From Acaryochloris marina S15 (GTDB taxonomy: Bacteria > Cyanobacteriota > Cyanobacteriia > Thermosynechococcales > Thermosynechococcaceae), in contig NZ_CP064923.1 of NCBI RefSeq assembly GCF_018336915.1, positions 3,380,371 through 3,404,370 of the forward strand: a stretch of 24,000 bases of DNA. Direction: 5' to 3'. Shown here one piece after another: positions 3-24,000 of this stretch (position 1 is its first letter; every line of letters starts with the position of its first letter). The notes beneath the pieces were generated by a model. The model ran no database searches. It saw only the letters and a list, made by a program, of their open reading frames with translations, and was not told where the DNA came from. The translations under genes and the position numbers were made by a program.

Positions 3-1277
3 AGCCAATCTTCCCTTCTCTCTAACTCATCCACACAACTGATAGCTGAAGCTGAAGCCCCTAAAGAGCTTTCTCCTGCTGCCTTGAAAGTTCTATGCAA
101 GAACTTCCCTCTGAACTCTCGTTGCACTGGAGCAGCAACCGAAACTAGCGAAGATGCTTCAGCAACGGATAGTGCTCCTGCTGATACTACAGTATCTGCA
201 GAAGAAGAATCGGCTGATTCCCCCGCCATGAGCGATGCTCCAGGTGGTGAAGTAGATGCTGCGGCTGAGCCGACAGATACTGCAGAGGGTGGCGCAGAAC
301 AACCCACCGAAACACCGACTGCCAGTGACGCTCCTGCTGACGATGCAATGGGAGCTACTGATGAAACGGATGCCGCTGCAGAAGGTGGTGCAGAACAACC
401 TACTGACGATCCATCTGTCAGTGATGCCCCTGCTGACGATGCAATGGGAGCTACTGATGAAACGGACGCCGCTGCGGAAGGTGGTGCAGAACAACCTACT
501 GACGATCCATCTGCCAGTGATGCCCCTGCTGATGATGCAGTGAATGCTACCGACGAGACGGACGCCACTGCAGAAGGTGGTGCAGAACAACCTGCTGACG
601 ATCCATCTGCTGGTGATGCCACTACACCGGATGCCACTGCTCCGACAATGACAGCTCCCACTGTCGCTCCTCCCACTGTTACTCCCCCAACCGTAACTCC
701 CCCTGTTTCAGGTCCTGAAGGCGGTGAAGGTGGTGCTGCACAACCCGCTGATGATACCGGTGCCACTCCTACAGCTCCTATAGAGGAAACGAGCCCTGAA
801 GGAGCAATGCCTTCAGAAACTGAACAACCCTCCAGCAGTACCCCTGAAACCACTCCAAGTGCTGATGCTTTAAAGCCAGAAGCTGATTCTGCATCAGGAG
901 AACAATCCTCCATCTCTGAGGGTGAGCTTAAGCAATTTGCAACCGCCATACCTCAATTAAGTTCACTTGAGAAAACAACCAAAGGGGAAATTTCCCAAGT
1001 GATTGGTCAGTCAGGACTGACCCAAGATAAGTTCAATTCTCTATACAATGGGCAGCAAGCCAGTAGCCCAGCAGTAGATGCCACTGATGCAGAAAAACAG
1101 TCCTTTGAACAAGCAATGACCAAAATTCAGGCCATTGAAAAAAAGGGGCAAGCAGAGCAAGAAAAAGTGATTCGTTCCCAAGGACTAGAACCTCAGAGAT
1201 TTAGTCAGATCTTAGCGGCTGTTCGCCAAGACCAATCCTTGCGAACCAAAGTTCAGCAGATGTTACAAACAAACTAG
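3..1277 (+). CDS. Acidic low-complexity repeat protein with a DUF4168-like helical C-terminus (5' end lies outside the window)
   Basis: The frame is open from the window edge (nt 3) to TAG at 1275-1277, so the TTG at 84 in the ORF track is probably internal. The body is Ala/Asp/Glu/Thr/Pro-rich, with 32-aa tandem repeats (AEGGAEQPTDDPS.SDAPADDAMGATDETDAA) and a PTV(A/T)PP mini-repeat. The Gln/Lys-rich helical C-terminus (ELKQFATAIPQL..., QRFSQILAAVRQDQSLRTKVQQML) resembles the duplicated motif of DUF4168 proteins. That family call is from memory, not from a search. Confidence 0.6.
   Translation, partial: SQSSLLSNSSTQLIAEAEAPKELSPAALKVLCKNFPLNSRCTGAATETSEDASATDSAPADTTVSAEEESADSPAMSDAPGGEVDAAAEPTDTAEGGAEQPTETPTASDAPADDAMGATDETDAAAEGGAEQPTDDPSVSDAPADDAMGATDETDAAAEGGAEQPTDDPSASDAPADDAVNATDETDATAEGGAEQPADDPSAGDATTPDATAPTMTAPTVAPPTVTPPTVTPPVSGPEGGEGGAAQPADDTGATPTAPIEETSPEGAMPSETEQPSSSTPETTPSADALKPEADSASGEQSSISEGELKQFATAIPQLSSLEKTTKGEISQVIGQSGLTQDKFNSLYNGQQASSPAVDATDAEKQSFEQAMTKIQAIEKKGQAEQEKVIRSQGLEPQRFSQILAAVRQDQSLRTKVQQMLQTN
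282..625 (+). repeat. In-frame 96-bp (32-codon) tandem repeat, about 3.5 copies
   Basis: Unit starts (GCAGAGGGTGG / GCAGAAGGTGGTG / GCGGAAGGTGGTG / GCAGAAGGTGGTG) fall at 282, 378, 474 and 570, exactly 96 nt apart. The units are nearly identical at the nucleotide level. Confidence 0.9.
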
Positions 1278-14224: not shown

Positions 14225-15817
14225 TTACTGGAAGCTTTCTGGGGATTCTGATGGAGGCGGTGTTGAGAAATCAGGCCGAGCAAAGGGGTCGAACGGAGAT
14301 GGCTCTGGGCTGGGAGCCAGGCTGTCAGGATAGGAGTCTATTGGCGCTTGAAGAGTAGGATCCGGGCCTAGGGAATCAGGACTAAGAGGGACGGAGTCCT
14401 GAAGGGTGGGATCTGGCCCAATATCACCCTGATCAAACTGAGGATCAACCGTTGGTTCTTCTAAAGTTGAGGGAATGGGGGACTCAAGAGGTGTTTCAAT
14501 CGGAGTGGGCAAAGTTTCTAATTCCCTTCTGGTCGTCCCTGGCTTAGGTAGAAAATCTTCATTTTGAACCGGGGCAGCCTTTGCAGGCACTTGCGGGTTC
14601 GCGAACTGATTCTGGTAATGAAACCGTAGCAACAGGCCAAAGGCAATTCCCACAACACCTGAGAGCACTGAACACACGATTAATGCTCGGAAGGGAAATC
14701 TGGGAGGCGCGGAATAAGGTTGGAGACGAGTGGTTGACACAGTCTGGCTGGGCTCCTGGCTAGGGACTGTTGATTCTGAAAGTGTTGTCGGAAGATCCTC
14801 AGTCTCAGGGGCTATAGATAATTGCTCTGAAGGGTAAGGAATTGCTGGGCCTGAAGGTTCTGAGGCTGGAGGTTCTGAGGCTGGAGGAGGAGAGGTCTCT
14901 AGAAGAGAAGAGTCTATTGAGGATACAGGTTTCGCAGTTAGGGAAGGGGAAGCTGCGCCTATGTTACCCGATTCTGTTGGGAATGATACAGGGGGAGAAG
15001 GTGCCTTGGGTAGGAGTTTCATCCACTCTGAGATAGATTGAGGGCGATGCTGAGGTTGCATCGCCATTCCCCGTAGCAGGGCAACAATCGTTGCCTGGCT
15101 TAGGTCTGGGTGATGCATTTCCAAGCGAATATGTTGCCGCTGGGAAGCTGCTATCGGCATTTGCCCCATCACCAAGGTGTATAAGGTTGCGGCTAATCCA
15201 TAGATATCGGTTGTAACGGTTTGTTGACCTTGAGCGGATTCAGGTGCTGCATAGGCATGAACCAGAGGAGGAGGCAAACTAGGGTTGCTGGGTTGCCAAA
15301 CCCAATTCACAAGCATCGGATGATCAGTATGGGGAGGGTCAACAACATTTTTCGGTTGAACATCTCCATGCCGAAGCTGCTGCTGATGCGCTTGGTTCAA
15401 GCCGTTAGCAATTTGGGTGATTTGGGCAATCGCCTCCGCTTCTGATAGGGGCTGATTTTTTCCATTTATGGCCCAGGTCTGTTCTGGTAGCTTGTCCCTG
15501 ACCAGAAAGGGGAGAACCGAATCTACAAAAACGTCTCGGATGGGTTCTAGGGAAGGATGTTTTAAGCGCTGCCAAGCTTGAGCTTCTTGTATGAAAGCAT
15601 CGCGATGTAGGAGGATTTTTTTAGGGTGTTGACGGGACGGATTAAGGGTATTGATCAGAACAGGCTGCTGACTAGGTAAATGAGTGCCCTCATAGGTTAG
15701 CTGCAAGCCCTGATGCCTGACCAGTTGCTCTAAACGATACGTTCCTTTTTGTAAAAGTGTTCCGAGGGGAAGCAAAACCATTGTTGGCAGAGGGGGGCGC
15801 ATGGTAGCTAACGGCAA
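14225..15817 (-). CDS. Membrane-anchored Hanks-type Ser/Thr kinase homologue with degenerate catalytic motifs (pseudokinase), Pro-rich C-terminal region
   Basis: Kinase-fold landmarks are retained: FIQEA...LKHP, HGDVQPKN, YAAPE, TDIYGLAATLYTLVMG, HRPQSISEW. One TM helix (ALIVCSVLSGVVGIAFGLLL) is followed by a Pro/Ser/Glu-rich tail with short repeats. The start is uncertain: TTG at 15817, ATG at 15802 or ATG at 15781. Confidence 0.75.
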   Translation of the reverse strand: MPLATMRPPLPTMVLLPLGTLLQKGTYRLEQLVRHQGLQLTYEGTHLPSQQPVLINTLNPSRQHPKKILLHRDAFIQEAQAWQRLKHPSLEPIRDVFVDSVLPFLVRDKLPEQTWAINGKNQPLSEAEAIAQITQIANGLNQAHQQQLRHGDVQPKNVVDPPHTDHPMLVNWVWQPSNPSLPPPLVHAYAAPESAQGQQTVTTDIYGLAATLYTLVMGQMPIAASQRQHIRLEMHHPDLSQATIVALLRGMAMQPQHRPQSISEWMKLLPKAPSPPVSFPTESGNIGAASPSLTAKPVSSIDSSLLETSPPPASEPPASEPSGPAIPYPSEQLSIAPETEDLPTTLSESTVPSQEPSQTVSTTRLQPYSAPPRFPFRALIVCSVLSGVVGIAFGLLLRFHYQNQFANPQVPAKAAPVQNEDFLPKPGTTRRELETLPTPIETPLESPIPSTLEEPTVDPQFDQGDIGPDPTLQDSVPLSPDSLGPDPTLQAPIDSYPDSLAPSPEPSPFDPFARPDFSTPPPSESPESFQ

Positions 15818-15999: not shown

Positions 16000-16908
16000 T
16001 TAGATGATGCCTAATTTCTCTAGTATGGGTCGTGTGGAGACCACATGCTTTTCTAGCCCAAGTTTCTGCGGTTCAATCCCTAAAGCCAAACCGACTAACT
16101 GAGGTAAATGCAAAACAGGCAAGCCTAGCTTGGTATTAATGGATTTTTCAACTTCAGGTTGACGAGAATCTAAATTCAGATGACAGAGGGGACAAGGGGT
16201 CACCAAGCAGTCAGCTCCAGCTGCAATTGCGTCCTGAATTCTACCTCCCGCCATGGCAAAGGACTGGGGGGTGGCATAGCTAGCGAGGGGCCAACCACAA
16301 CATTGGGTGCGACCCGAGTAGTAGATTGGCGTAGCATCGAGGGCCAGAAACACATTTTCCATGGAAGAAGGGTGAATTGGATCGTCGAAGGGGAGACTCT
16401 GTTGGGCTCTGAGAAGATAGCAACCATAAAAAGCCGCACACTTTAATCCGCTGAGTTTACGCTTGACTTGAAGGGAAAGGGCTTCTAAGCCATAATCTCC
16501 GACCAAAGCCCACAGGAGATGCTTGACTTCAGTACTGCCTTGATAGGGAGAACAATGTTGTTCGGACAACAAGCTATTGATCTGATCAAAATACTCAGGG
16601 TTACTCTCTTTGGCGTCTTTCAATCGCTCATCGACATGACCAATCACTCCTTGGCAGGTACTGCAATGGGTGAGGAGGGGTAAATTGAGCTGTTCGGCTA
16701 GGGCAATATTGCGGGCATTAACGGTATCTTCGAGTAATTGCGAATCTTCTTTAAAGGTGCCAGACCCACAACAGGCCGCTTTCTTCAATTCAATGAGTTT
16801 AATCCCTAAGGCCTGGGCAATTTCCTGAGTTGACATGTATAGTTCTCGACAAGCGCCTTGAGCGACACATCCTGGGAAGTATGCATATTGGAGTGTTGGG
16901 ACCGACAT
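16000..16908 (-). CDS. HdrB-like CCG-domain iron-sulfur protein (heterodisulfide reductase subunit B / SdhE-type succinate dehydrogenase subunit family)
   Basis: Two Cys-rich CCG-type modules are present: YFPGCVA...CCGSG...C..C and FYGCYLLR...CCGWP...PCPLCH. Confidence 0.8.
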   Translation of the reverse strand: MSVPTLQYAYFPGCVAQGACRELYMSTQEIAQALGIKLIELKKAACCGSGTFKEDSQLLEDTVNARNIALAEQLNLPLLTHCSTCQGVIGHVDERLKDAKESNPEYFDQINSLLSEQHCSPYQGSTEVKHLLWALVGDYGLEALSLQVKRKLSGLKCAAFYGCYLLRAQQSLPFDDPIHPSSMENVFLALDATPIYYSGRTQCCGWPLASYATPQSFAMAGGRIQDAIAAGADCLVTPCPLCHLNLDSRQPEVEKSINTKLGLPVLHLPQLVGLALGIEPQKLGLEKHVVSTRPILEKLGII

Positions 16909-16940
16909 CTGATGAATTACTCGCTGTTACTGAGCCTTTG

Positions 16941-17026
16941 CTAGAGCAACGCTAGCATGTTGGTCTGAGAATTCGGCTTACCTGTGATTGAACATTACAA
17001 AACGGTGAAGTCTTTTTGCCTGAAGG
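16941..17026. repeat. Direct repeat copy A, flanking the 3' side of the LRR-Roc-COR gene
   Basis: The core 16969-17012 (GAATTCGGCTTACCTGTGATTGAACATTACAAAACGGTGAAGTC) matches 20647-20690 at 42 of 44 positions. An upstream 16-mer at 16941-16956 matches 20619-20634 at 14/16 with the same 28-nt offset to the core. A shared TGAAGG lies further downstream. Confidence 0.85.
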
Positions 17027-17083
17027 CACAGGTATTTCAATGTTTCAATTGGTCATATTGAAAGTTCGCAGAATTTCCATTAC

Positions 17084-20000
17084 TTACAAGCGTTTATCCT
17101 CCCGGAGCTTGTCCAGTTGGCCTCGGAAGTGTCCCTGCAATCCTTCGATCGATTCATATTCCTTGTAAAAGTGGCTTAAATTACTAAGCTTATCTTTGAA
17201 GTCACGCAGAGAAATAAGATCATCAACATTGACATCACTGGTTGAAACCGTGGTCTTCCGGAAGTAGGTATAGATCAGCGGTTTCTTAGTCTTCTTGAAG
17301 GTTTTGTATGCAACGTCAAATTCTTCCTCTGTGTATTTACCTGTTTTAGTCTTGAACAAGCTGACGAAAATGTCGCAGTGTCGAATTTTTTGGTTATATT
17401 CATTCTGGAGTCGGGTTGTCGACATGGCATCAAGGAAGTTTTCCCAGCGGATAACTTCTAAGTAGATGCCTTGTTTGCGTAGACGGTCATTCTGCTGGCG
17501 AAAATATAGATCGAAAGCGTCGCGATCTTCGCGAAGCTCAGCTGAGGACGCTAGGAAGATCCGAATCGTCTTTTCCTTCACAGTATCCGCCGACTTAGAT
17601 TGATTTGATTCTTCAGGTGTTTCTATCTCACTATTGTCTTGAGGTAGCTCTTGTTTTGCTCTCGCCAACCATTGTTCTAGATTCATGCCATCCAGAAGTT
17701 CTAGCACGCTGACATCATGGTAGTCAGGTGGATTGGGGCACTCAATGGATGGTTTGCCTCTACTTTTCCGTTCAATTAATTTTTTCTGCTCGAACATTGC
17801 TGGTTCTGTTAGGTTCATGCAGGTTTCACAGATGCAAGGCACCCATTTACTGACTTTGTCTTTGAGTCCTTGGAAGCTGTCGTTTAGTGCATCAAGTTCA
17901 CTGGCAATAGTGCTGAGCAGCGATTTTTTTTCTGGACCACGGCTGCGGAGAATAATTTCATTACCTTTTTCGGCTGTCACCACTAGCATCTTTGTTTCAC
18001 CATGCTCGAATAAGGCACCCTGCAACCAACATAGATTCGGCTGCTTTACAAAACGGTGCACTCGAACGATCAGTCGGCTTACCAGGCCCCGAGGTAGAAA
18101 CTCGTAGCGGTAGGTCAACATCAGATCGCCACTCCTGGCCCAATTGTCTAGCTCTGAAGGCTTTGAAGGTGACAAGTGTTGTGGAACCAGCCATGTCTCT
18201 TTGTTCATATCCGGCAGCCGATAACATAGCTCGAAACGGACCATGAGGGCACGCAACTCTATTTCCTTATCCGCGTAGCCTTTTTTGGACCACAGACGAT
18301 CGCAATCATCCAGGGTAAAGCGACCTTGCTGGGATTTGACATTTTCGTCGTCAAGGATACGAAATACTGCATCTGTCATCCACTGGTTCTGTAAAAATAT
18401 AGTCCGTCGGAGTTCCCGTGGTTCCTGAAAGTGTAGGAACACTCCCAGGTCATGCAGGTACTGGCTTAGCTTTAGGGCCTTATCGAGATCTGCTTCAAGA
18501 TGACCTGCATAGACTGTGAAGTAGTTATCCAGTGAGATATAGGGCTGGGTCTTTGCCAATTCCTTCAATTCATCGCGAATGGCAACCCATTTAGCTGGTA
18601 CATCTTCACCAATATGTGGCAATTTCTGAATGTAGTATTCTACCGCTTGGCGCAGTTTATCCGCCGCACATGGATGTTCCAGATTGCCCCGATGGAACTC
18701 CTCTACGTTGGGAAAGCGCCCTCTGATGCCCACCTCGTCGATCTGTTTACTGCGTCCGCCTTTCTCATTTTGAAAAATTAGTAGGGGACTAGCTGCGCTA
18801 AGGGTTTCAACTACCTCCAGCCAGAACTTAAAACCTTCGTCATAGACTGATTTGTGATCACTGCGGGTGTCATCGACCAATACATACAAGGAACGCTTTG
18901 TGAGAAAGAACTGATGGGTCGCATGATAAATCTGCTGACCGCCAAAGTCCCAGGCATTAAGTCGAAACTTGCGTCCATTAGACATTGAGAACTCATGACG
19001 GTGGATATCGATGCCACGGGTTGTTTCGTCTTCGTTAGGCAGTCCTAATTCGGGCAGAAACATACGACGCAGAATGCTAGTTTTTCCAGCCCCACCCTCG
19101 CCAACAATTAGTAGTTTGGCTTCAAACAGCCGATCTACCCCCTGCGCTTCAACCTCATGAAAGTAATTGAGTACTGCCTCCGGCCCCTGCTTTACGATTT
19201 CCGGCGAGGGATGTGTTAGCGGACAATCTTCGACATAGATACCTACTCCCCGCCATGTTGCTTGGGACCAATGGATCGGTCGTTTGGCTAAGACCCACGA
19301 TTTTAAAGGTGATAGATCTACCACGTTTGTCTCAGCAATGTTCAGTGTCACGAGTGGAAGCTGTGCTAATGGAGCAACCGTCGTTATCTGTTTATTTGAA
19401 TTTAGATGTAGATCGTTGAGAGCTGTTTGGTGTTGACCAATGGCAATGACAACTGCATCACCCACATTGTTGTTACTCAGATTGAGTGACGAGAGCTGTT
19501 GGAGGTTCTCTGCGATGGCCCGCGCCCCGTCATCACCCACTTTGTTGTTTCTCAGATTGAGTGACGAGAGCTGTTGAAGGTTCTCTGCGATGGCCCGCGC
19601 CCCGTCATCACCCACATTGTTGTTTCTCAGATTGAGTGACGAGAGCTGTTGGAGGTTCTCTGCAATGGCCCGCGCCCCGTCATCACCCACTTTGTTGCCA
19701 CTCAGATCAAGGGACGAGAGCTGTTGGAGGTTCTCTACGATGGCCCGCGCCCCATCATCGCCCACTTCGTTGAAACTCAGATTGAGTGACGAGAGCTGTT
19801 GGAGGTTCTCTGCAATGGCCCGCGCCCCGTCATCACCCACATTGTTGTTACTCAGATTGAGTGACGAGAGCTGTTGGAGGTTCTCTGCGATGGCCCGCGC
19901 CCCATCATCGCCCACTTCGTTGAAACTCAGATTGAGTGACGAGAGCTGTTGGAGGTTCTCTGCAATGGCCCGCGCCCCGTCATCACCCACTTCGTTGTCA

Positions 20001-20515
20001 CTCAGATCAAGTGACGAGAGCTGTTGGAGGTTCTCTGCGATGGCCCGCGCCCCATCATCGCCCACTTCGTTGAAACTCAGATTGAGTGACGAGAGCTGTT
20101 GGAGGTTCTCTGCGATGGCCCGCGCCCCGTCAGCGCCCACTTCGTTGTCACTCAGATCAAGTGACGAGAGCTGTTGGAGGTTCTCTGCGATGGCAGTGAT
20201 GTCTGTATCCTGCAGGCTGAGGGACCAAAAGGTGAGAGTTTGCAACCGATTGAGTCGCAATAGTTCAAGGGGGAGACTAGATAACTGGGTGGTAAGTTGG
20301 AATACAACGCGCCCCTGAAACTCCTTTGGCCAATTGTCCATTGATGGTGAAAGGCTAACTTCTGGTCCAAAGAGGGCTAGGTCAGTCCGATGTTCATTGC
20401 TGAGCCGCATTAGTAGATCGGGCAATTCATCTGGATTTATGCGCTGCAGCCCAGTTTCTCCAGTCATATTAGGTACTCCCAGCTTGTCCATCGGCTTTTT
20501 TTGGGTATTGCCCAC
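17084..20515 (-). CDS. ROCO-type multidomain protein: LRR (10 near-identical 25-aa repeats) - Roc GTPase - COR - Cys cluster - C-terminal TIR-like/DUF4062-like domain
   Basis: The ORF is 1143 aa. The LRR unit is LQQLSSLxLSxNxVGDDGARAIAEN. Roc motifs include P-loop LLIVGEGGAGKTS and switch II WDFGGQ. COR landmarks are VPAKWVAIRDELKE, YISLDNYF, LHDLGVFLHFQ and WLVPQHLSPSKP. The C-terminal 160 aa carry IRIFLASSAELREDRD...CDIFVSLFKTKTGKYTEEEFDVAY...KPLIYTYF. The annotated start is GTG at 20515. The ATG at 20467 (GGAG 8 nt upstream) is an alternative. Confidence 0.9.
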   Translation of the reverse strand: MGNTQKKPMDKLGVPNMTGETGLQRINPDELPDLLMRLSNEHRTDLALFGPEVSLSPSMDNWPKEFQGRVVFQLTTQLSSLPLELLRLNRLQTLTFWSLSLQDTDITAIAENLQQLSSLDLSDNEVGADGARAIAENLQQLSSLNLSFNEVGDDGARAIAENLQQLSSLDLSDNEVGDDGARAIAENLQQLSSLNLSFNEVGDDGARAIAENLQQLSSLNLSNNNVGDDGARAIAENLQQLSSLNLSFNEVGDDGARAIVENLQQLSSLDLSGNKVGDDGARAIAENLQQLSSLNLRNNNVGDDGARAIAENLQQLSSLNLRNNKVGDDGARAIAENLQQLSSLNLSNNNVGDAVVIAIGQHQTALNDLHLNSNKQITTVAPLAQLPLVTLNIAETNVVDLSPLKSWVLAKRPIHWSQATWRGVGIYVEDCPLTHPSPEIVKQGPEAVLNYFHEVEAQGVDRLFEAKLLIVGEGGAGKTSILRRMFLPELGLPNEDETTRGIDIHRHEFSMSNGRKFRLNAWDFGGQQIYHATHQFFLTKRSLYVLVDDTRSDHKSVYDEGFKFWLEVVETLSAASPLLIFQNEKGGRSKQIDEVGIRGRFPNVEEFHRGNLEHPCAADKLRQAVEYYIQKLPHIGEDVPAKWVAIRDELKELAKTQPYISLDNYFTVYAGHLEADLDKALKLSQYLHDLGVFLHFQEPRELRRTIFLQNQWMTDAVFRILDDENVKSQQGRFTLDDCDRLWSKKGYADKEIELRALMVRFELCYRLPDMNKETWLVPQHLSPSKPSELDNWARSGDLMLTYRYEFLPRGLVSRLIVRVHRFVKQPNLCWLQGALFEHGETKMLVVTAEKGNEIILRSRGPEKKSLLSTIASELDALNDSFQGLKDKVSKWVPCICETCMNLTEPAMFEQKKLIERKSRGKPSIECPNPPDYHDVSVLELLDGMNLEQWLARAKQELPQDNSEIETPEESNQSKSADTVKEKTIRIFLASSAELREDRDAFDLYFRQQNDRLRKQGIYLEVIRWENFLDAMSTTRLQNEYNQKIRHCDIFVSLFKTKTGKYTEEEFDVAYKTFKKTKKPLIYTYFRKTTVSTSDVNVDDLISLRDFKDKLSNLSHFYKEYESIEGLQGHFRGQLDKLREDKRL
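17087..17569 (-). other. C-terminal putative effector domain (aa 983-1143), TIR-like / DUF4062-like flavodoxin-type fold
   Basis: The beta-alpha pattern runs IRIFLASS (strand), ELREDRDAFDLYF (helix), IYLEVIRWE (strand), CDIFVSLF (strand), GKYTEEEFDVAY (conserved-Glu helix), PLIYTYF (strand). This matches my recollection of the DUF4062 / TIR-like consensus (vFiSS..dL.eeR ... cDvfv.i.g.rYG...TE.Ey..A...kP.l.f). It has not been checked with an HMM. Confidence 0.5.
17846..18628 (-). other. COR (C-terminal of Roc) domain, aa ~630-890
   Basis: It follows the Roc domain directly. Typical COR strings are present: KWVAIRDELKE, YISLDNYF, LSQYLHDLGVFLHFQ, FLQNQWMTDAVFRILD, ELCYRL and WLVPQHL. Confidence 0.7.
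18641..19123 (-). other. Roc (Ras of complex proteins) GTPase domain, aa ~465-625
   Basis: G1 is GEGGAGKTS (nt 19076-19102). G3 is DFGGQ (nt 18935-18949). The G4 position reads NEKG (nt 18758-18769) instead of the canonical NKxD. Confidence 0.85.
19430..20203 (-). repeat. 75-bp (25-codon) in-frame tandem repeat array encoding 10 LRR units
   Basis: The period is 75 nt (for example, CCCAC at 19461 and 19536). The units are nearly identical in DNA sequence, with a few recurring subtype variants (SFNE, SDNE, S/RNNN/K). Confidence 0.9.
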
Positions 20516-20618
20516 CCTCTATTTCTCGATGTGTTTTATCCATTACCATCAATATTTCTTGACCTTCTCAATACAATATCTCAGCCGAATCAGTGACATT
20601 TACGCATTTATCTCTATG

Positions 20619-20726
20619 CCAGAGCAATGCTAGCCCTATGACACCAGAATTCGGGTTACCTGTGATTGAACATTACAAAACGGTGAAATCAGTGGTCCTG
20701 AGTCGGGAGACCTTTTATCTTGAAGG
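20619..20726. repeat. Direct repeat copy B, flanking the 5' side of the LRR-Roc-COR gene
   Basis: See copy A. The core 20647-20690 is 42/44 identical to 16969-17012. Copy B carries a 20-nt insertion (20691-20710) before the shared CTTTT..TGAAGG tail. It lies 28-135 nt upstream of the pip start codon. Confidence 0.85.
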
Positions 20727-20753
20727 ACAAGAGATAGCTGTTGGACCTCCAAA

Positions 20754-21704
20754 ATGCGCGAACTTTACCCAGTCATCACCCCTTATACAACGGGTAAACT
20801 CCAAGTTTCTGATCTGCATACCCTCCATTACGAAGAAGTGGGAAATCCCCAGGGGAAACCAGCTATATTTCTGCACGGGGGACCCGGGGGCGGCATTGAT
20901 CCGGTCTATCGACAGTATTTTGATCCACAGGAATGGCGGTTAGTGCTGTTTGACCAGCGGGGTTGCGGGCAAAGCACCCCCCATGCAGAGCTAAAAGAAA
21001 ACACCACCTGGGATTTAGTCAGGGATATCGAAACCCTGCGTCAGCATCTCGACATTGATCAGTGGGTAGTCTTTGGAGGGAGTTGGGGCAGTACTTTAGC
21101 CCTGGCCTACAGCCAGACCCATCCTGAATCCTGCAAGGGACTCATCTTGCGGGGGATATTTATGTTGCGTCATCAAGAACTGCAATGGTTCTACCAAGAA
21201 GGAGCCAGCAACATTTTCCCAGATGCCTGGGAAGCCTATCTCCAGCCCATTCCTCTGGAAGAGCGTCAGGATTTAATCAGTGCCTATTACCGCCGACTCA
21301 CAAGTAACGATCCAAACATTCAACTGGAAGCGGCCAAAGCCTGGTCCGTCTGGGAGGCCACAACGAGCAAACTGTTGCCCGATCCTGAATTGCAAGAAAA
21401 ATGTGGTGAAGACACCTTTGCCACGGCCTTTGCTCGGATTGAATGTCACTATTTCATGAACAAGGGCTTTTTAGACACAGAAGATCAGCTGATGCGGGGA
21501 TGCGATCGCATCCAGCATCTCCCCATCGTTATTGTTCAAGGCCGTTATGATGTCGTTTGCCCCGTCATTTCAGCCTGGGAACTCCATCAGCAACTTCCTC
21601 AATCAGAGCTGCAAATCATTGCCGATGCCGGCCATTCCATTACAGAACCTGGCATTCGCAATGCTTTGATCGAAGCAACCGACCGCTTTGCTCAAATTCC
21701 ATGA
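20754..21704 (+). CDS. pip: Proline iminopeptidase (prolyl aminopeptidase)
   Basis: Family signatures run through the full length: LYP.ITPY, HYEEVGNPQGKPAIFLHGGPGGG, LFDQRGCGQSTPHA, NTTWDLVRDIE, FGGSWGSTLALAY, LRGIF and WFYQEGAS.IFPDAWE. Confidence 0.95.
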   Translation: MRELYPVITPYTTGKLQVSDLHTLHYEEVGNPQGKPAIFLHGGPGGGIDPVYRQYFDPQEWRLVLFDQRGCGQSTPHAELKENTTWDLVRDIETLRQHLDIDQWVVFGGSWGSTLALAYSQTHPESCKGLILRGIFMLRHQELQWFYQEGASNIFPDAWEAYLQPIPLEERQDLISAYYRRLTSNDPNIQLEAAKAWSVWEATTSKLLPDPELQEKCGEDTFATAFARIECHYFMNKGFLDTEDQLMRGCDRIQHLPIVIVQGRYDVVCPVISAWELHQQLPQSELQIIADAGHSITEPGIRNALIEATDRFAQIP

Positions 21705-21756
21705 CATGCCTTGGCTAAGACTTAATTTATGCTCCAGCAAGAAAACAAGATCGATG

Positions 21757-21811
21757 CTTTCAGAGGGGCGGTTTCAGATTACTATGGAAGGAATGGCTGA
21801 AACCCTGAAAG
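21757..21811 (+). promoter_or_regulatory. Nested two-stem RNA/DNA hairpin in the pip-acpP intergenic region
   Basis: The outer stem is CTTTCAG (21757-21763) / CTGAAAG (21805-21811). The inner stem is GGTTTCAG (21770-21777) / CTGAAACC (21797-21804). There is a 6-nt 5' bulge (AGGGGC) and a 19-nt loop. No U-tract follows. The function is unknown. Confidence 0.3.
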
Positions 21812-21952
21812 ACTGGATCAGACATTCCCTGGCCTTGATCTTTGAGCAAGGACATTGAAATATGCTCAGGGAAGGAAGTAAAGCATTTGGCCTCATTTGA
21901 AGCCGCATTTAACCTTCTGCTAGAGTCCGTAGTTTTAGAGAAAAGAGAACCC

Positions 21953-22198
21953 ATGAGTGAGTCGGAAATTTTTGGCAAAGTAAAAGATATTGTTGCCGAG
22001 CAATTAAGTGTTGATGCTGAAAAGGTAACGCCAGAAGCGAGCTTCCAGAACGATCTAGATGCTGACTCCCTGGATGTTGTGGAAATGGTGATGGCTCTAG
22101 AAGAAGAGTTTGATATCGAAATTCCAGACGAAGCAGCCGAAGAAATCCTTACGGTTCAAGCTGCTGTTAACTTTATCTCAAGCAAAGTAAAGGCTTAG
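21953..22198 (+). CDS. acpP: Acyl carrier protein
   Basis: I place the start at the internal ATG at 21953, giving 81 aa ([18 protein letters not shown]...). The phosphopantetheine site [27 protein letters not shown] is canonical. The 37-aa N-terminal extension in the ORF track is not ACP-like. Confidence 0.95.
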
Positions 22199-22212
22199 CA
22201 ATCCTGATAGAC

Positions 22213-22240
22213 CGTGTTGCATGCTCTAGCATGCAACACG
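22213..22240 (+). promoter_or_regulatory. Intercistronic hairpin between acpP and fabF
   Basis: A perfect 12-bp stem, CGTGTTGCATGC / GCATGCAACACG, encloses a 4-nt loop (TCTA), starting 15 nt after the acpP stop. No U-tract follows. It could be a partial terminator or an mRNA-stabilising element. Confidence 0.45.
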
Positions 22241-22290
22241 ATTGCTAACCCCTAAATATTTTCATCCTATGCTGATCACATGTGACCATC

Positions 22291-23544
22291 ATGACTAACC
22301 TAGAGCCTAAGCGCGTTGTAATTACAGGGCTGGGGGCCATCACTCCGTTAGGGAATACCCTCTCTGAATACTGGGATGGGTTGCTTGCGGGTCGCAGTGG
22401 AATTGGCCCCGTCACCCGGTTTGATGCAGCTAAGCATGCCTGCCAAATTGCCGGAGAAGTGAAAGGCTTCGATCCACAAGACTATATGGATCGTAAAGAC
22501 GCCAAACGCATGGACCGTTTTGCTCAATTTGCGGTGTCTGCCAGCAAACAAGCCCTAGCTGATGCTAACTTCACCATTGACGATACCAATGCAAACGATA
22601 TCGGTATCATCATCGGCACCGGTATTGGGGGTCTAAAAGTTCTAGAGGATCAGCAGGAAATTTATCTCACCAAAGGGCCGGATCGCTGCAGCCCCTTTAT
22701 GATTCCGATGATGATTGCCAATATGGCGGCAGGCTTAACAGCCATTCATGTGGGTGCTAAAGGTCCTAACTCCTGTTCAGTGACGGCCTGTGCTGCCGGG
22801 TCTAACGCCATTGGTGATGCCTTTCGCTTTGTCCAGAGGGGCTATACCAAAGCGATGATTTGTGGTGGCACCGAAGCTGCAGTGACTCCCTTATCCATGG
22901 CTGGATTTGCGGCCTGTCGAGCCCTCTCCACCCGCAATGATGATCCCACAAAAGCCAGCCGCCCGTTTGATCGTGATCGGGATGGTTTTGTCCTGGGAGA
23001 AGGAGTTGGCATTCTCTTAATTGAAGAATTAGAGCATGCTCTAGCGCGAGGCGCCAAAATTTACGCCGAGCTGATTGGCTATGGGGTCACTTGCGATGCT
23101 CATCATATGACATCCCCCTCCCCTGGTGGCGTTGGCGCGGCCCGAGCCATTGAGTTATGCCTTAAAGACAGTAACTTGTCCCCTGACCAAATCAGCTATA
23201 TCAATGCCCATGGCACCAGCACGAACGCCAACGATACAACGGAAACAGCTGCAATTAAGCATGCAATCGGTGATAATGCTTACCGAGTAGCCATTAGTTC
23301 CACAAAATCGATGACGGGTCATTTACTGGGCGGGTCGGGTGGTATTGAAGCCGTAGCCACTGCCATGGCCATTGCCAATGATCAAGTCCCGCCGACAATT
23401 AACCTAGATAATCCTGACGAAGGATGCGATTTAGACTATATTCCCCATACCAGCCGTAAATTAACGGTTGATGTTGCTCTTTCCAATTCCTTTGGTTTTG
23501 GCGGTCACAATGTCACCCTCGCCTTCCGAAAATATGCCGATTGA
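22291..23544 (+). CDS. fabF: 3-oxoacyl-ACP synthase II (KAS II)
   Basis: MTNLEPKRVVITGLGAITPLGN, the active-site Cys in SVTACAAGSNAIG, and the His motifs (CDAHHMTSP, NAHGTSTNAND) and GFGGHN are all present. ATG at 22291 is preferred over GTG at 22282. Confidence 0.95.
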   Translation: MTNLEPKRVVITGLGAITPLGNTLSEYWDGLLAGRSGIGPVTRFDAAKHACQIAGEVKGFDPQDYMDRKDAKRMDRFAQFAVSASKQALADANFTIDDTNANDIGIIIGTGIGGLKVLEDQQEIYLTKGPDRCSPFMIPMMIANMAAGLTAIHVGAKGPNSCSVTACAAGSNAIGDAFRFVQRGYTKAMICGGTEAAVTPLSMAGFAACRALSTRNDDPTKASRPFDRDRDGFVLGEGVGILLIEELEHALARGAKIYAELIGYGVTCDAHHMTSPSPGGVGAARAIELCLKDSNLSPDQISYINAHGTSTNANDTTETAAIKHAIGDNAYRVAISSTKSMTGHLLGGSGGIEAVATAMAIANDQVPPTINLDNPDEGCDLDYIPHTSRKLTVDVALSNSFGFGGHNVTLAFRKYAD

Positions 23545-23579
23545 TGTTGGATTTACTTGCCATGATGGCATTGATATTT

Positions 23580-23608
23580 GAGGCTTGTCTGTTCCAAGCC
23601 TCTTTTTG
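23580..23608 (+). terminator. Rho-independent terminator after fabF
   Basis: GAGGCTTG (23580-23587) pairs with CAAGCCTC (23595-23602) around a 7-nt loop, followed immediately by TTTTTG. Confidence 0.7.
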
Positions 23609-23691
23609 ACGCCCATAGAAAACATAGACAACGTCGTTTTCTTGCCGCTTATTCCTTCTTGCCGTTCAGTAAATACTAAAAATTCAAGCTT

Positions 23692-24000
23692 ATGGTTGTT
23701 GCGACCCAATCCCTAGACGAACTTTGTATTAATGCAATTCGTTTCCTGGCCATTGATGCCGTCGAAAAAGCCAAATCGGGACACCCAGGTTTACCCATGG
23801 GTGCCGCTCCCATGGCCTATGTCCTTTGGGACCGCATCATGCGGTTTAATCCCAAAAATCCTTATTGGTTTAACCGTGATCGGTTTGTGCTGTCCGCCGG
23901 GCATGGCTGCATGTTGCAGTATGCTCTTTTGCACCTGACGGGATTTAACAGTGTTTCCCTTGATGAAATCAAGAATTTCCGTCAGTGGGGTTCCAAAACC
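23692..24000 (+). CDS. tktA: Transketolase, N-terminal 103 codons (runs off the window)
   Basis: This gene is absent from the ORF track because there is no stop in the window. My own translation from ATG 23692 gives [84 protein letters not shown]..., the canonical transketolase N-terminus. Confidence 0.95.

Follow-up and report, generated by a model that had tools for sequence, protein, structure and literature searches.

Among described proteins, CtRoco from Chlorobium tepidum (PDB 5IL7, 6HLU, 8R4B-D) is a bacterial model of LRRK2. A GTP-dependent dimer–monomer cycle is known for this protein, and a nanobody bound on the concave side of its LRR domain collides with COR-B in the closed dimer and promotes the GTP-bound open active monomer (PMC11052575). 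The LRR-ROCO proteins of brown algae are candidate immune receptors whose genes are subject to internal shuffling of very similar LRR modules (Zambounis 2012; Teng 2024, PMC11378527); four sites per repeat are positively selected in them, and these sites are on the concave face (PMC11378527). For fungal NLRs (HET-E/D/R, NWD), published accounts describe near-identical repeats, few positively selected surface positions, instability of the repeat number, and problems with short-read assembly (Dyrka 2014, PMC4986451; PMC12222747).

The window analysed here, a stretch of 24,000 nucleotides from Acaryochloris marina S15, contains a gene with an LRR array of a type already known from fungal NLRs and brown-algal ROCOs. 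This array is probably the ligand-sensing arm of a Roco protein built like an innate-immune receptor. The NCBI label of the protein (WP_212661983.1) is "COR domain-containing protein", Acaryochloris marina. The mechanically determined ORF (17084–20515, minus strand) begins with a GTG at 20515 and is 1143 aa in length; all residue numbers refer to this frame, and the starts of the homologues align with its M17. According to Pfam, the order of domains from the N to the C terminus is LRR, Roc, COR-A, COR-B, and an uncharacterised C-terminal domain. The features of the gene, all on the minus strand, are as follows:

17084–20467, minus strand: LRR-Roc-COR (Roco) coding sequence, 1127 aa when started at the NCBI ATG (QUY40769.1 / WP_212661983.1)
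20255–20467, minus strand: N-terminal α/β cap, upstream of the degenerate unit, with strands and helices in the model at aa 22–112
20180–20254, minus strand: degenerate LRR unit (LNRLQTLTFWSLSLQDTDITAIAEN) ahead of the array, from the translation
19430–20179, minus strand: array of ten 75-nt / 25-residue LRR units, aa 113–362 (Pfam LRR_6, E = 3.5e-46)
20179-75(k-1) down to 20105-75(k-1), minus strand: LRR unit k (1–10), with hypervariable codons 8, 10, 11 and 13
19205–19429, minus strand: degenerate C-terminal LRRs and cap/linker to Roc (QTALNDLHLNSNKQITTV..., LVTLNIAETNVVDLSPLK..., CPLTHP), from the translation and the structure model; Pfam LRR_4 at aa 340–384
18764–19117, minus strand: Roc GTPase domain, aa 467–584 (PF08477, E = 2.8e-20; 73 bits, cut-off 27)
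17687–18598, minus strand: COR-A (aa 640–781; PF16095, E = 1.4e-35) and COR-B (aa 798–943; PF25497, E = 8.1e-28), both above the Pfam cut-offs
17111–17572, minus strand: uncharacterised C-terminal α/β output domain, aa 982–1135, with a likeness below the Pfam cut-offs to the NPHP3 domain, DUF4062 and TIR_2

The protein has a Ras-like Roc, a COR directly C-terminal to it, and an N-terminal LRR, which are the features of the Roco family in its group-1 (prokaryotic) architecture. The P-loop GEGGAGKTS and the switch II motif WDFGGQ of Roc are both invariant across 24 homologues in the family alignment. Pfam finds no match to NACHT or NB-ARC in the protein, and Roc-COR takes the place of the switch. 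In its presumed working the protein is NLR-like, but it is not an NLR.

The initial annotation placed the array at 19430–20203. The array itself is at 19430–20179, while the last 24 nt of that span (20180–20203) are the "TAIAEN" tail of the degenerate preceding unit. The coding sequence runs as a single continuous prokaryotic frame through all units, and the minus-strand translation matches exactly the consensus given previously, LQQLSSL[D/N]L[S/R][D/F/N/G]N[E/N/K]VGDDGARAIAEN. Tandem Repeats Finder places 9.9 copies of a 75-bp period at 19456–20194, 91% matching and free of indels, with a score of 1198. The mean DNA identity of the ten in-frame 75-nt units is 91.8% (0.918), the highest among the 13 loci analysed, which agrees with the near-identity of the units noted before. 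Units 2 and 4 have the same DNA sequence, and unit 6 is one base away; these are the SFNE units. Their recurrence out of order is real and reflects a 150-bp two-unit higher-order repeat. Between blocks 1–2 and 3–4 there are 3 nt differences; between blocks 3–4 and 5–6 there are 6, of which five fall in nt 21–39 of the first unit, and nt 40–142 are identical.

The units are also mosaic: the 5' parts are shared within the groups {1,3}, {2,4,6} and {5,10}, and the 3' parts within {2,4}, {3,5,7} and {8,9}. All four gametes are present at nine site pairs, which, together with the mosaic half-units, fits exchange between units, in line with the recombination-driven diversification suggested earlier. 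The repeats are kept nearly identical inside the gene by concerted evolution or recent two-unit duplications, and segments are exchanged between units. Recombination shuffles the variants, and the variants themselves originate by point mutation.

When units 1–9 are compared, 85 of the 101 pairwise amino-acid differences (84%) are found at positions 8, 10, 11 and 13, which are x5, x7, x8 and x10 of LxxLxLxxNxL, exactly where the substitutions had been said to concentrate. Outside the hypervariable positions, replacements are limited to D to A (unit 1, position 16), A to V (unit 6, position 23), and those in unit 10, in its degenerate second half. The four hypervariable codons comprise 12 nucleotides, of which six vary, compared with 8 of 63 elsewhere (Fisher one-sided p = 0.007). 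By chance, the four positions with the most variation would all coincide with x positions, of which the motif has six, with a probability of 0.0012. Per-codon variability, a check proposed in the initial annotation, is uneven as well: in uncorrected NG86 counts, based on 12 nt per unit, on paralogous and hence non-independent units, and on one allele of the A. marina gene, pN is 0.306 at the four hypervariable codons (hv) and 0.010 at the other 21 codons, with a whole-unit pS of 0.137 and a pN(hv)/pS of 2.2. The pN(hv)/pS of ten independent homologous genes ranges from 0.99 to 2.58 and exceeds 1 in nine (sign test p = 0.011), whereas pN(rest)/pS ranges from 0.07 to 0.60. At four positions of each unit, change outpaces that at synonymous sites.

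Variability also peaks at these positions within each of 47 homologues, where they rank in the order 11, 10, 8, 13, and in 411 units they carry paratope-like residues (D, N, S, G, W, R, Y, H, F). The similarity of units is 0.72–0.92 within a gene and 0.59–0.84 between genes; the nearest unit belongs to the same gene for 68 of the 79 units. The proposal of a rapidly evolving recognition surface is supported by this repeated pattern and by the ratios above 1, and every refuting test that could be applied to it gave a result in its favour. Since the three closest genomes are without the gene and no close allele of it was found in the databases searched, we infer rapid evolution from the within-array and family-level evidence.

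The LRR domain was modelled with AlphaFold2 (pLDDT 92.5). The β-strand comprises unit positions 6–8 and the helix positions 16–25; therefore, of the variable residues, which it had been recommended to map on a predicted structure, position 8 belongs to the strand of the predicted concave face, and 10, 11 and 13 fall in the loop between strand and helix. The convex helix of the model is made up of the half of the unit that is invariant. The best fold match of the model is the LRR domain of CtRoco (5il7_A, E = 1.1e-18, TM 0.61–0.64), and the GALA protein 9j7j is matched with E = 2e-15.

Homologues with 55–73% identity are spread across phyla. Among homologues with a well-conserved Roc-COR, the number of LRR units varies from 2 to 18. 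In a sister clade with LRR units of 24 residues, proteins from metagenome assemblies whose tails of 708 aa (Roc-COR and the C-terminal domain) are 100% identical carry 12, 12, 11 and 8 units, and the sole difference between two 9.3-kb loci is one 72-bp LRR unit. These metagenome assemblies are in line with the expectation that such an array is prone to copy-number change.

The Roco gene is an accessory insertion and is strain-specific within Acaryochloris marina. The inserted segment and its borders are as follows:

16968–17009, plus strand: left copy of a 42-bp direct repeat, with an imperfect extension back to 16940
17010–20645, no strand assigned: insertion segment of 3,636 bp, absent from three sibling assemblies, with Roco as its only gene
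20646–20687, plus strand: right copy of the 42-bp direct repeat, with an imperfect extension back to 20618

The flanks in the three sibling genomes without the gene are 98.5–99.6% identical, and a tract of ~10% divergence adjoins the insertion. The neighbours of the gene in A. marina S15 are housekeeping genes. At ten homologue loci, the neighbours are mutually unrelated, and no defence genes were found among them.

The C-terminal domain scores below the Pfam cut-offs with NPHP3 (24.8 bits, cut-off 33), DUF4062 (17.2 bits, cut-off 24.7) and TIR_2 (20.8 bits, cut-off 28, E = 5.8e-4). Its assignment as a TIR is supported neither by the TIR_2 score nor by hhalign, which gives a probability of 0.4% to the TIR_2 domain of homologues. 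No relative of the domain was found in PDB. In close homologues, a TIR_2 domain replaces it, and the output position is modular across the Roco family. Relatives of the C-terminal domain with 50–59% identity precede, on the N-terminal side, NACHT/nSTAND NTPases with HEAT/TPR repeats as well as FGE-sulfatase proteins. A search of PADLOC-DB 2.0 gave a sole match, of aa 982–1135 to positions 3–164 of the 906-position PDC-S60 model (E = 7.8e-13); no known system in this database matches the whole protein.

The A. marina protein shares the LRR-Roc-COR order with CtRoco, which is a strong sequence match as well as the best fold match (24–28% identity over the LRR domain), but for the C-terminal output domain no match to the CtRoco chains was detected. 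Brown-algal LRR-ROCO proteins have the same LRR-Roc-COR architecture, and by our own motif mapping three of their selected sites correspond to unit positions 8, 10 and 11. However, the brown-algal LRR is a separate 72-bp exon subject to exon shuffling and alternative splicing, whereas the A. marina units are intron-less, contiguous and 75 nt long, with unequal exchange or conversion; in addition, the brown-algal proteins are without the extra C-terminal domain. Fungal NLRs also have repeats that are nearly identical in a gene and vary at few surface positions; there, the repeats are WD40, ANK or TPR instead of LRR, a NACHT/NB-ARC STAND ATPase serves as the switch in place of Roc-COR, and the effector-NOD-repeats order is the reverse of that in A. 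marina. Bacterial NACHT/STAND NLR-like proteins and PDC-S60 share the output domain, which is N-terminal there, in the effector position. The NACHT/STAND proteins follow the same single-gene sensor-switch-effector logic, but the switch of the A. marina protein is a Ras-superfamily GTPase combined with a COR module for dimerisation. In GALA proteins, which are secreted F-box effectors, the unit length is 24 residues. The GALA-type LRRs of Ralstonia RipG4 (9J7J) and Legionella LegL1 (4XA9) share the repeat consensus LxxLxLxxNxIGDxGAxxLA with the A. marina array, whose units, unlike theirs, have 25 residues and are fused to Roc-COR.

Taken together, the array is probably the surface with which a stand-alone, horizontally mobile intracellular sensor recognises its ligand; this sensor would combine an LRR arm with a Roc-COR GTPase as the switch and the C-terminal domain as the output module. 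The reading that we favour, at somewhat better than even confidence, is a diversifying recognition surface in an NLR-like, GTPase-switched putative conflict sensor. A foreign or non-self protein would be held in the LRR curvature, in a position incompatible with the closed autoinhibited dimer, as with the nanobody on CtRoco; the GTP-bound open monomer would therefore be favoured, and the C-terminal domain would be freed or activated. The outcome may be a defence or cell-fate response, e.g., abortive infection. Specificity would be retuned by in-frame gain, loss and conversion of the 75-nt units and by point changes at the four positions.

Neutral relaxation after a recent tandem expansion, in which the four positions are simply the least constrained LRR surface with no diversifying selection or arms race, appears rather unlikely. 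In LRR proteins at large, variability is greatest at the x positions of LxxLxLxxN, the signal in the A. marina gene amounts to only ~8 minimal changes, and in the most diverged arrays pN(hv)/pS is ~1 (L024, 0.99; L017, 1.18). However, pN at the four codons is ~1.8–2.6-fold above pS in the seven arrays with pS < 0.3, where neutrality predicts a ratio of at most 1. The codon 11 variants need two steps (GAC/AAC/GGC to TTC), and five of the six nucleotides differing between blocks 3–4 and 5–6 are clustered in a 19-nt hypervariable stretch next to identical sequence. An assembly artefact affecting the copy number or the order of units, which would make the pattern partly artefactual, is very improbable. 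It could be suspected because the 750 bp of the array consist of units 92% identical, two of which do not differ at all, because a short-read assembly matching A. marina S15 (L004) breaks beside the gene, at 20658 inside the direct repeat, and because the exact protein has no record in the assembly indexes searched. Yet 8 of the 10 units are distinct and give an unambiguous path, the reading frame is intact over 1127 aa, the source contig is 5.88 Mb in length, and the positional pattern recurs in dozens of independent homologues.

Two other explanations concern the ligand. The array could serve host interaction or mimicry, with GALA-like LRRs targeting a eukaryotic host or partner, as in Ralstonia RipG/GALA and Legionella LegL1, instead of sensing invaders inside the bacterium. 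Acaryochloris is often animal-associated, several of the closest homologues come from marine-invertebrate symbionts or epibionts (Ca. Thiodiazotropha, Ca. Thiosymbion, Prochloron), and the sequence matches GALA proteins (9j7j, E = 2.9e-40; 4xa9). We nevertheless consider this improbable: no secretion signal or secretion-system context was apparent on inspection of the Roco locus and ten homologue loci, free-living Nitrospira, Nitrosomonas, Bryobacteraceae and Saprospiraceae frequently have members of the family too, and the C-terminal domain is common to cytoplasmic NACHT/STAND proteins. Slightly less credible still is an endogenous signalling scaffold, whose LRR binds a fixed cellular partner or its own COR-B (autoinhibition), so that the unit differences are an old conserved asymmetric interface and the homogeneity comes from gene conversion. 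In closed CtRoco, the concave LRR face does pack on COR-B (PMC11052575), and eukaryotic Roco proteins are signalling proteins (PMC6337361). The gene is dispensable, however, as sibling strains are without it, and the unit number varies widely beside a well-conserved Roc-COR; moreover, the LRR changes on an identical 708-aa tail in the sister clade, which argues against co-evolution of the LRR with COR-B.

Beyond the preferred reading of a putative conflict sensor, we tentatively suggest that bacterial Roco proteins with a hypervariable LRR may constitute a class of their own among innate-immune or non-self receptors, in which a Roc-COR GTPase stands in place of the STAND ATPase of NLRs, a foreign (e.g., phage) protein caught in the LRR curvature opens the closed dimer, and the domain shared with NACHT proteins executes the response. 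If this were true, the immune links of eukaryotic ROCOs (LRRK2, MASL1 and brown-algal ROCOs) would go back to a conflict system of prokaryotes. The receptor-like build of the A. marina protein suggests a testable function for the bacterial relatives of human LRRK2.

The 1143-codon minus-strand ORF at 17084..20515 encloses a 75-bp tandem repeat (19456..20194; 9.9 copies, 91% matches, and no indels in Tandem Repeats Finder). Translation of 19430..20179 in the frame of this ORF gives ten 25-residue leucine-rich repeat (LRR) units, matching the text read in the initial annotation. The encoded Roco protein is 100% identical to QUY40769.1 / WP_212661983.1 (NCBI, 'COR domain-containing protein', Acaryochloris marina), whose source contig is 5.88 Mb long, and is the one member of its 90% identity cluster. 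LRR_6, Roc, COR-A, and COR-B each exceed the Pfam cut-off. The mechanical ORF starts with GTG at 20515, whereas NCBI and the homologues use an ATG 16 codons downstream, at 20467; since the homologues align from M17, the latter is probably the true start of the gene.

Across units 1-9, pairwise DNA identity averages 0.918; units 2 and 4 have the same DNA sequence, and unit 6 is one base away from both. The initial annotation had placed the substitutions at x5, x7, x8, and x10 of the LxxLxLxxNxL motif, and unit positions 8, 10, 11, and 13 do hold 84% of the pairwise amino-acid differences. At the nucleotide level, 6 of 12 positions are variable in codons 8, 10, 11, and 13 versus 8 of 63 in the remaining codons (p = 0.007), and the probability that all four most variable positions land on the six x positions is 0.0012. 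The earlier observation on the array is thereby confirmed.

Synonymous markers at codons 7, 15, 17, and 22 reveal a 150-bp (two-unit) higher-order repeat. Blocks 1-2 and 3-4 are 3 nt apart; between blocks 3-4 and 5-6, 6 nt are different, and five of these fall in the hypervariable stretch (the first unit's nt 21-39). The units themselves are mosaic, their 5' parts being identical in {1,3}, {2,4,6}, and {5,10} and their 3' parts in {2,4}, {3,5,7}, and {8,9}, and all four gametes are present at nine biallelic site pairs. The two-unit blocks, the mosaic units, and the four-gamete pairs indicate that the array expanded by block duplication, accompanied by segment exchange between units or recurrent mutation. 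On the opposite strand, a 242-aa ORF (19590..20318, +) has a periodic 'MARAPSSPT...' reading; it was rejected as a gene, being a mechanical by-product of the repeat.

For units 1-9, the Nei–Gojobori estimates of pN are 0.306 at the four hypervariable codons and 0.010 at the remaining 21, against a pS of 0.137 for the whole unit. DNA of relatives was taken from one genome per species; 12 loci had at least three detected in-register 25-codon units, and the nine whose units resemble each other most were analysed together with the Acaryochloris gene. In all ten genes, the hypervariable codons have the highest pN. The pN(hv)/pS ratio is 0.99-2.58 and exceeds 1 in 9 of 10 genes (sign test p = 0.011), while pN(rest)/pS is 0.07-0.60. 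Units are more similar within a gene than between genes, which indicates that the arrays were homogenised or expanded independently and that each of the ten genes is a largely independent replicate. As estimated here from small samples, uncorrected and on paralogous units, these figures show that the four codons change faster than synonymous sites; they speak to rate, not to cause. Among 47 protein homologues with at least five units, the most variable positions within each protein are 11, 10, 8, and 13, followed by 16. The hypervariable positions use D, N, S, G, W, R, Y, H, and F, and the framework positions are 90-100% fixed. Proteins with detectable units contain 2 to 18 of them; internal unit identity in this set is highest for the Acaryochloris protein.

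The AlphaFold2 model of the LRR arm (aa 1-466) has a pLDDT of 92.5. In every unit, the model assigns positions 6-8 to a β-strand and positions 16-25 to a helix, with isolated bridges at 13 and 15; the invariant GDDGARAIAEN half is the convex helix. In LRR geometry, L7 and L9 point into the core, so position 8 would lie on the concave face. The loop bordering this face on its ascending side holds positions 10, 11, and 13 in the model. The best fold match is the Chlorobium tepidum Roco LRR domain (5il7_A, E = 1.1e-18), ahead of RipG4 (GALA), internalin A, NLRP3, and ribonuclease inhibitor; the sequence matches are consistent with these.

The last ~160 residues of the protein form an α/β domain (model pLDDT 77). 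Its Pfam matches are all sub-threshold (NPHP3, 2.4e-5; TIR_2, 5.8e-4; DUF4062, 5.9e-3), and sequence and profile searches found no PDB relative. Its invariants include the FLASS motif, RWE, YN, and EEEF. This domain is widespread (3,467 cluster representatives). Elsewhere, NACHT or novel-STAND NTPases containing HEAT/TPR repeats have it at their extreme N-terminus, as do proteins with a terminal FGE-sulfatase domain. The PADLOC defence candidate PDC-S60 likewise has it as its N-terminal domain. In eight close Roco homologues (58-73% identical), it is replaced by a closely related TIR_2 domain, and in another homologue, P0119, the C-terminal sequence is unrelated, although the precomputed Pfam list marks it, too, as TIR_2/SEFIR. 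This domain composition points to an architecture of sensor repeats, an NTPase switch, and an exchangeable putative output module. NLRs follow the same sensor–switch–output logic; however, the switch of the Roco protein is different, and the order is reversed.

The neighbouring proline iminopeptidase protein has identical copies on contigs of three other sequencing runs. In these three sibling assemblies, the CCG-domain gene lies directly beside pip, and the Roco gene is missing. The flanks of the insertion are 98.5-99.6% identical to those of the siblings. The insertion and its boundaries are as follows.

17010..20645, strand not assigned: insertion of 3,636 bp with the Roco gene inside, absent from the three sibling assemblies
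16968-17009 and 20646-20687: two copies of a 42-bp direct repeat (one mismatch between them), each with an imperfect ~28-bp extension upstream

No integrase, tRNA, or Rfam element was found at the insertion; given the lack of a tRNA or Rfam family at its boundaries, tRNA-targeted integration has no support. Its base composition carries no foreign mark, and a consensus promoter/terminator scan around the gene found nothing exceeding the shuffled background. The flanks contain ~0-6 substitutions per 500 nt relative to the siblings, a divergence of ~0.1-1%, except for 16,260-16,930, with ~65 substitutions (~10%). This block, which corresponds to the 5' two-thirds of the CCG-domain gene (16000..16908, -), touches the insertion directly, placing the Roco gene within a divergent tract of ~4.4 kb. 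The simplest reading of these alignments is that the gene was imported by homologous recombination from a diverged relative carrying it at the same locus, and block 16260-16930 looks like the left end of the ~4.4-kb recombination tract that brought it in. Alternatively, the gene may have been deleted in the other strains, with a separate exchange accounting for the divergent block.

Relatives with 55-73% identity are found in Desulfuromonas, Chloroflexota, Gammaproteobacteria, Nitrospirales, Planctomycetota, Acidobacteriota, Myxococcota, and Bacteroidota, which indicates horizontal spread. Marine-invertebrate symbionts or epibionts (Ca. Thiodiazotropha, Ca. Thiosymbion, and Prochloron) are the source of several of the closest homologues, and many others come from free-living Nitrospira, Nitrosomonas, Bryobacteraceae, and Saprospiraceae. 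A search of viral contigs revealed four distant relatives only (26-35% identity); thus, the family is not typically phage-borne. The neighbours of the Roco gene in the window are housekeeping genes, and those at ten homologue loci are mutually unrelated (lipase, LysR, GntR, TmcA, transglutaminase, and others). A multi-gene system with conserved partners was therefore rejected, and the gene appears to act alone. Other repeats were noted in the window. The DUF4168 protein ORF (84..1277) contains a coding tandem repeat at 280-620 (+; 96-bp period, 3.6 copies, 88% matches), adjoined by a 15-bp repeat at 655-700 (3.1 copies). In the Ser/Thr kinase gene (14225..15817, -), sibling L003 lacks 18 bp in frame (14384-14401), and a separate 15-bp tandem repeat (2.5 copies) is located at 14851-14887.

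The array had also been described as prone to copy-number change and assembly collapse. In a sister clade (24-residue units, ~51% identity), four proteins with 100% identical 708-aa Roc-COR and C-terminal parts have 12, 12, 11, and 8 units, along with substitutions at x5 and x8. Four contigs (47-73 kb), assembled from different samples, have the 12-unit allele; the neighbourhood of the 11-unit allele is the same, and the 9.3-kb loci differ inside the array only, by one 72-bp unit. These loci (L085-L088) come from JGI/ENA metagenome assemblies, so collapse may affect their unit counts, and the differences fit either copy-number instability or assembly collapse, in line with the earlier description. 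Their Roco gene is flanked by PIN-domain and FitA-like RHH genes of toxin–antitoxin type. As for the Acaryochloris gene, no second allele was found in the data searched: an exact-protein look-up of the full protein (the ORF and P0001) in the indexed assemblies returned no contig, and an exact scan of JGI metagenomes for the unit-junction DNA gave zero matches. A short-read contig (L004, Logan SRR12447961) matches 20658-24000 at 100% and stops inside the right direct repeat. This contig end and the unrecorded full protein are consistent with assembly breakage around the locus; arrays of such near-identical repeats are under-represented or collapsed in short-read assemblies.

The anatomy of the gene, the positional pattern, the excess over synonymous change, the accessory status, and the modular C-terminal position are direct observations. 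A possible mechanism is offered by the Chlorobium tepidum protein CtRoco, in whose closed dimer the LRR is folded onto Roc-COR; binding of a nanobody inside the LRR curvature, at central repeats 5-10, produces a clash with COR-B and shifts CtRoco towards the open monomer, which is GTP-bound and has increased GTPase activity (PMC11052575). By analogy, a natural ligand on the four-position surface would open the dimer and release the C-terminal domain. Specificity would be retuned by gain, loss, or conversion of units and by point changes. A defence or non-self function of the protein is plausible.

The phenomenon itself is of a known kind. Brown-algal LRR-ROCO genes have shuffled LRR exons and four positively selected concave-face sites per repeat (PMC11378527), and fungal NLRs have near-identical WD40, ANK, or TPR repeats with hypervariable positions (PMC4986451). 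According to Kaur et al. (PMC7159879), ROC-COR GTPases are rare components of bacterial conflict systems. What is new is the combination of prokaryotic LRR arrays, the Roc-COR switch, and a domain also present in NACHT proteins. In our literature search, whose coverage is incomplete, no paper was found on a bacterial Roco protein with hypervariable homogenised LRRs or with a defence role, and no physiological function had been assigned to prokaryotic Roco proteins in the literature searched.

The Roco gene unites several evolutionary marks of immune receptors: it is an accessory, horizontally moved, single-gene unit, with a modular C-terminal domain common to NACHT proteins, homogenised repeats, and dN > dS at the predicted ligand-face positions. 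For nearly two decades, structural models of LRRK2, the Parkinson's-disease kinase, have been provided by prokaryotic Roco proteins. The array is a natural LRR scaffold of a framework and four positions, and activation of the Roc-COR switch by a concave-face binder has already been demonstrated in vitro for CtRoco. The question of what bacterial Roco proteins sense thus becomes open to experiment.
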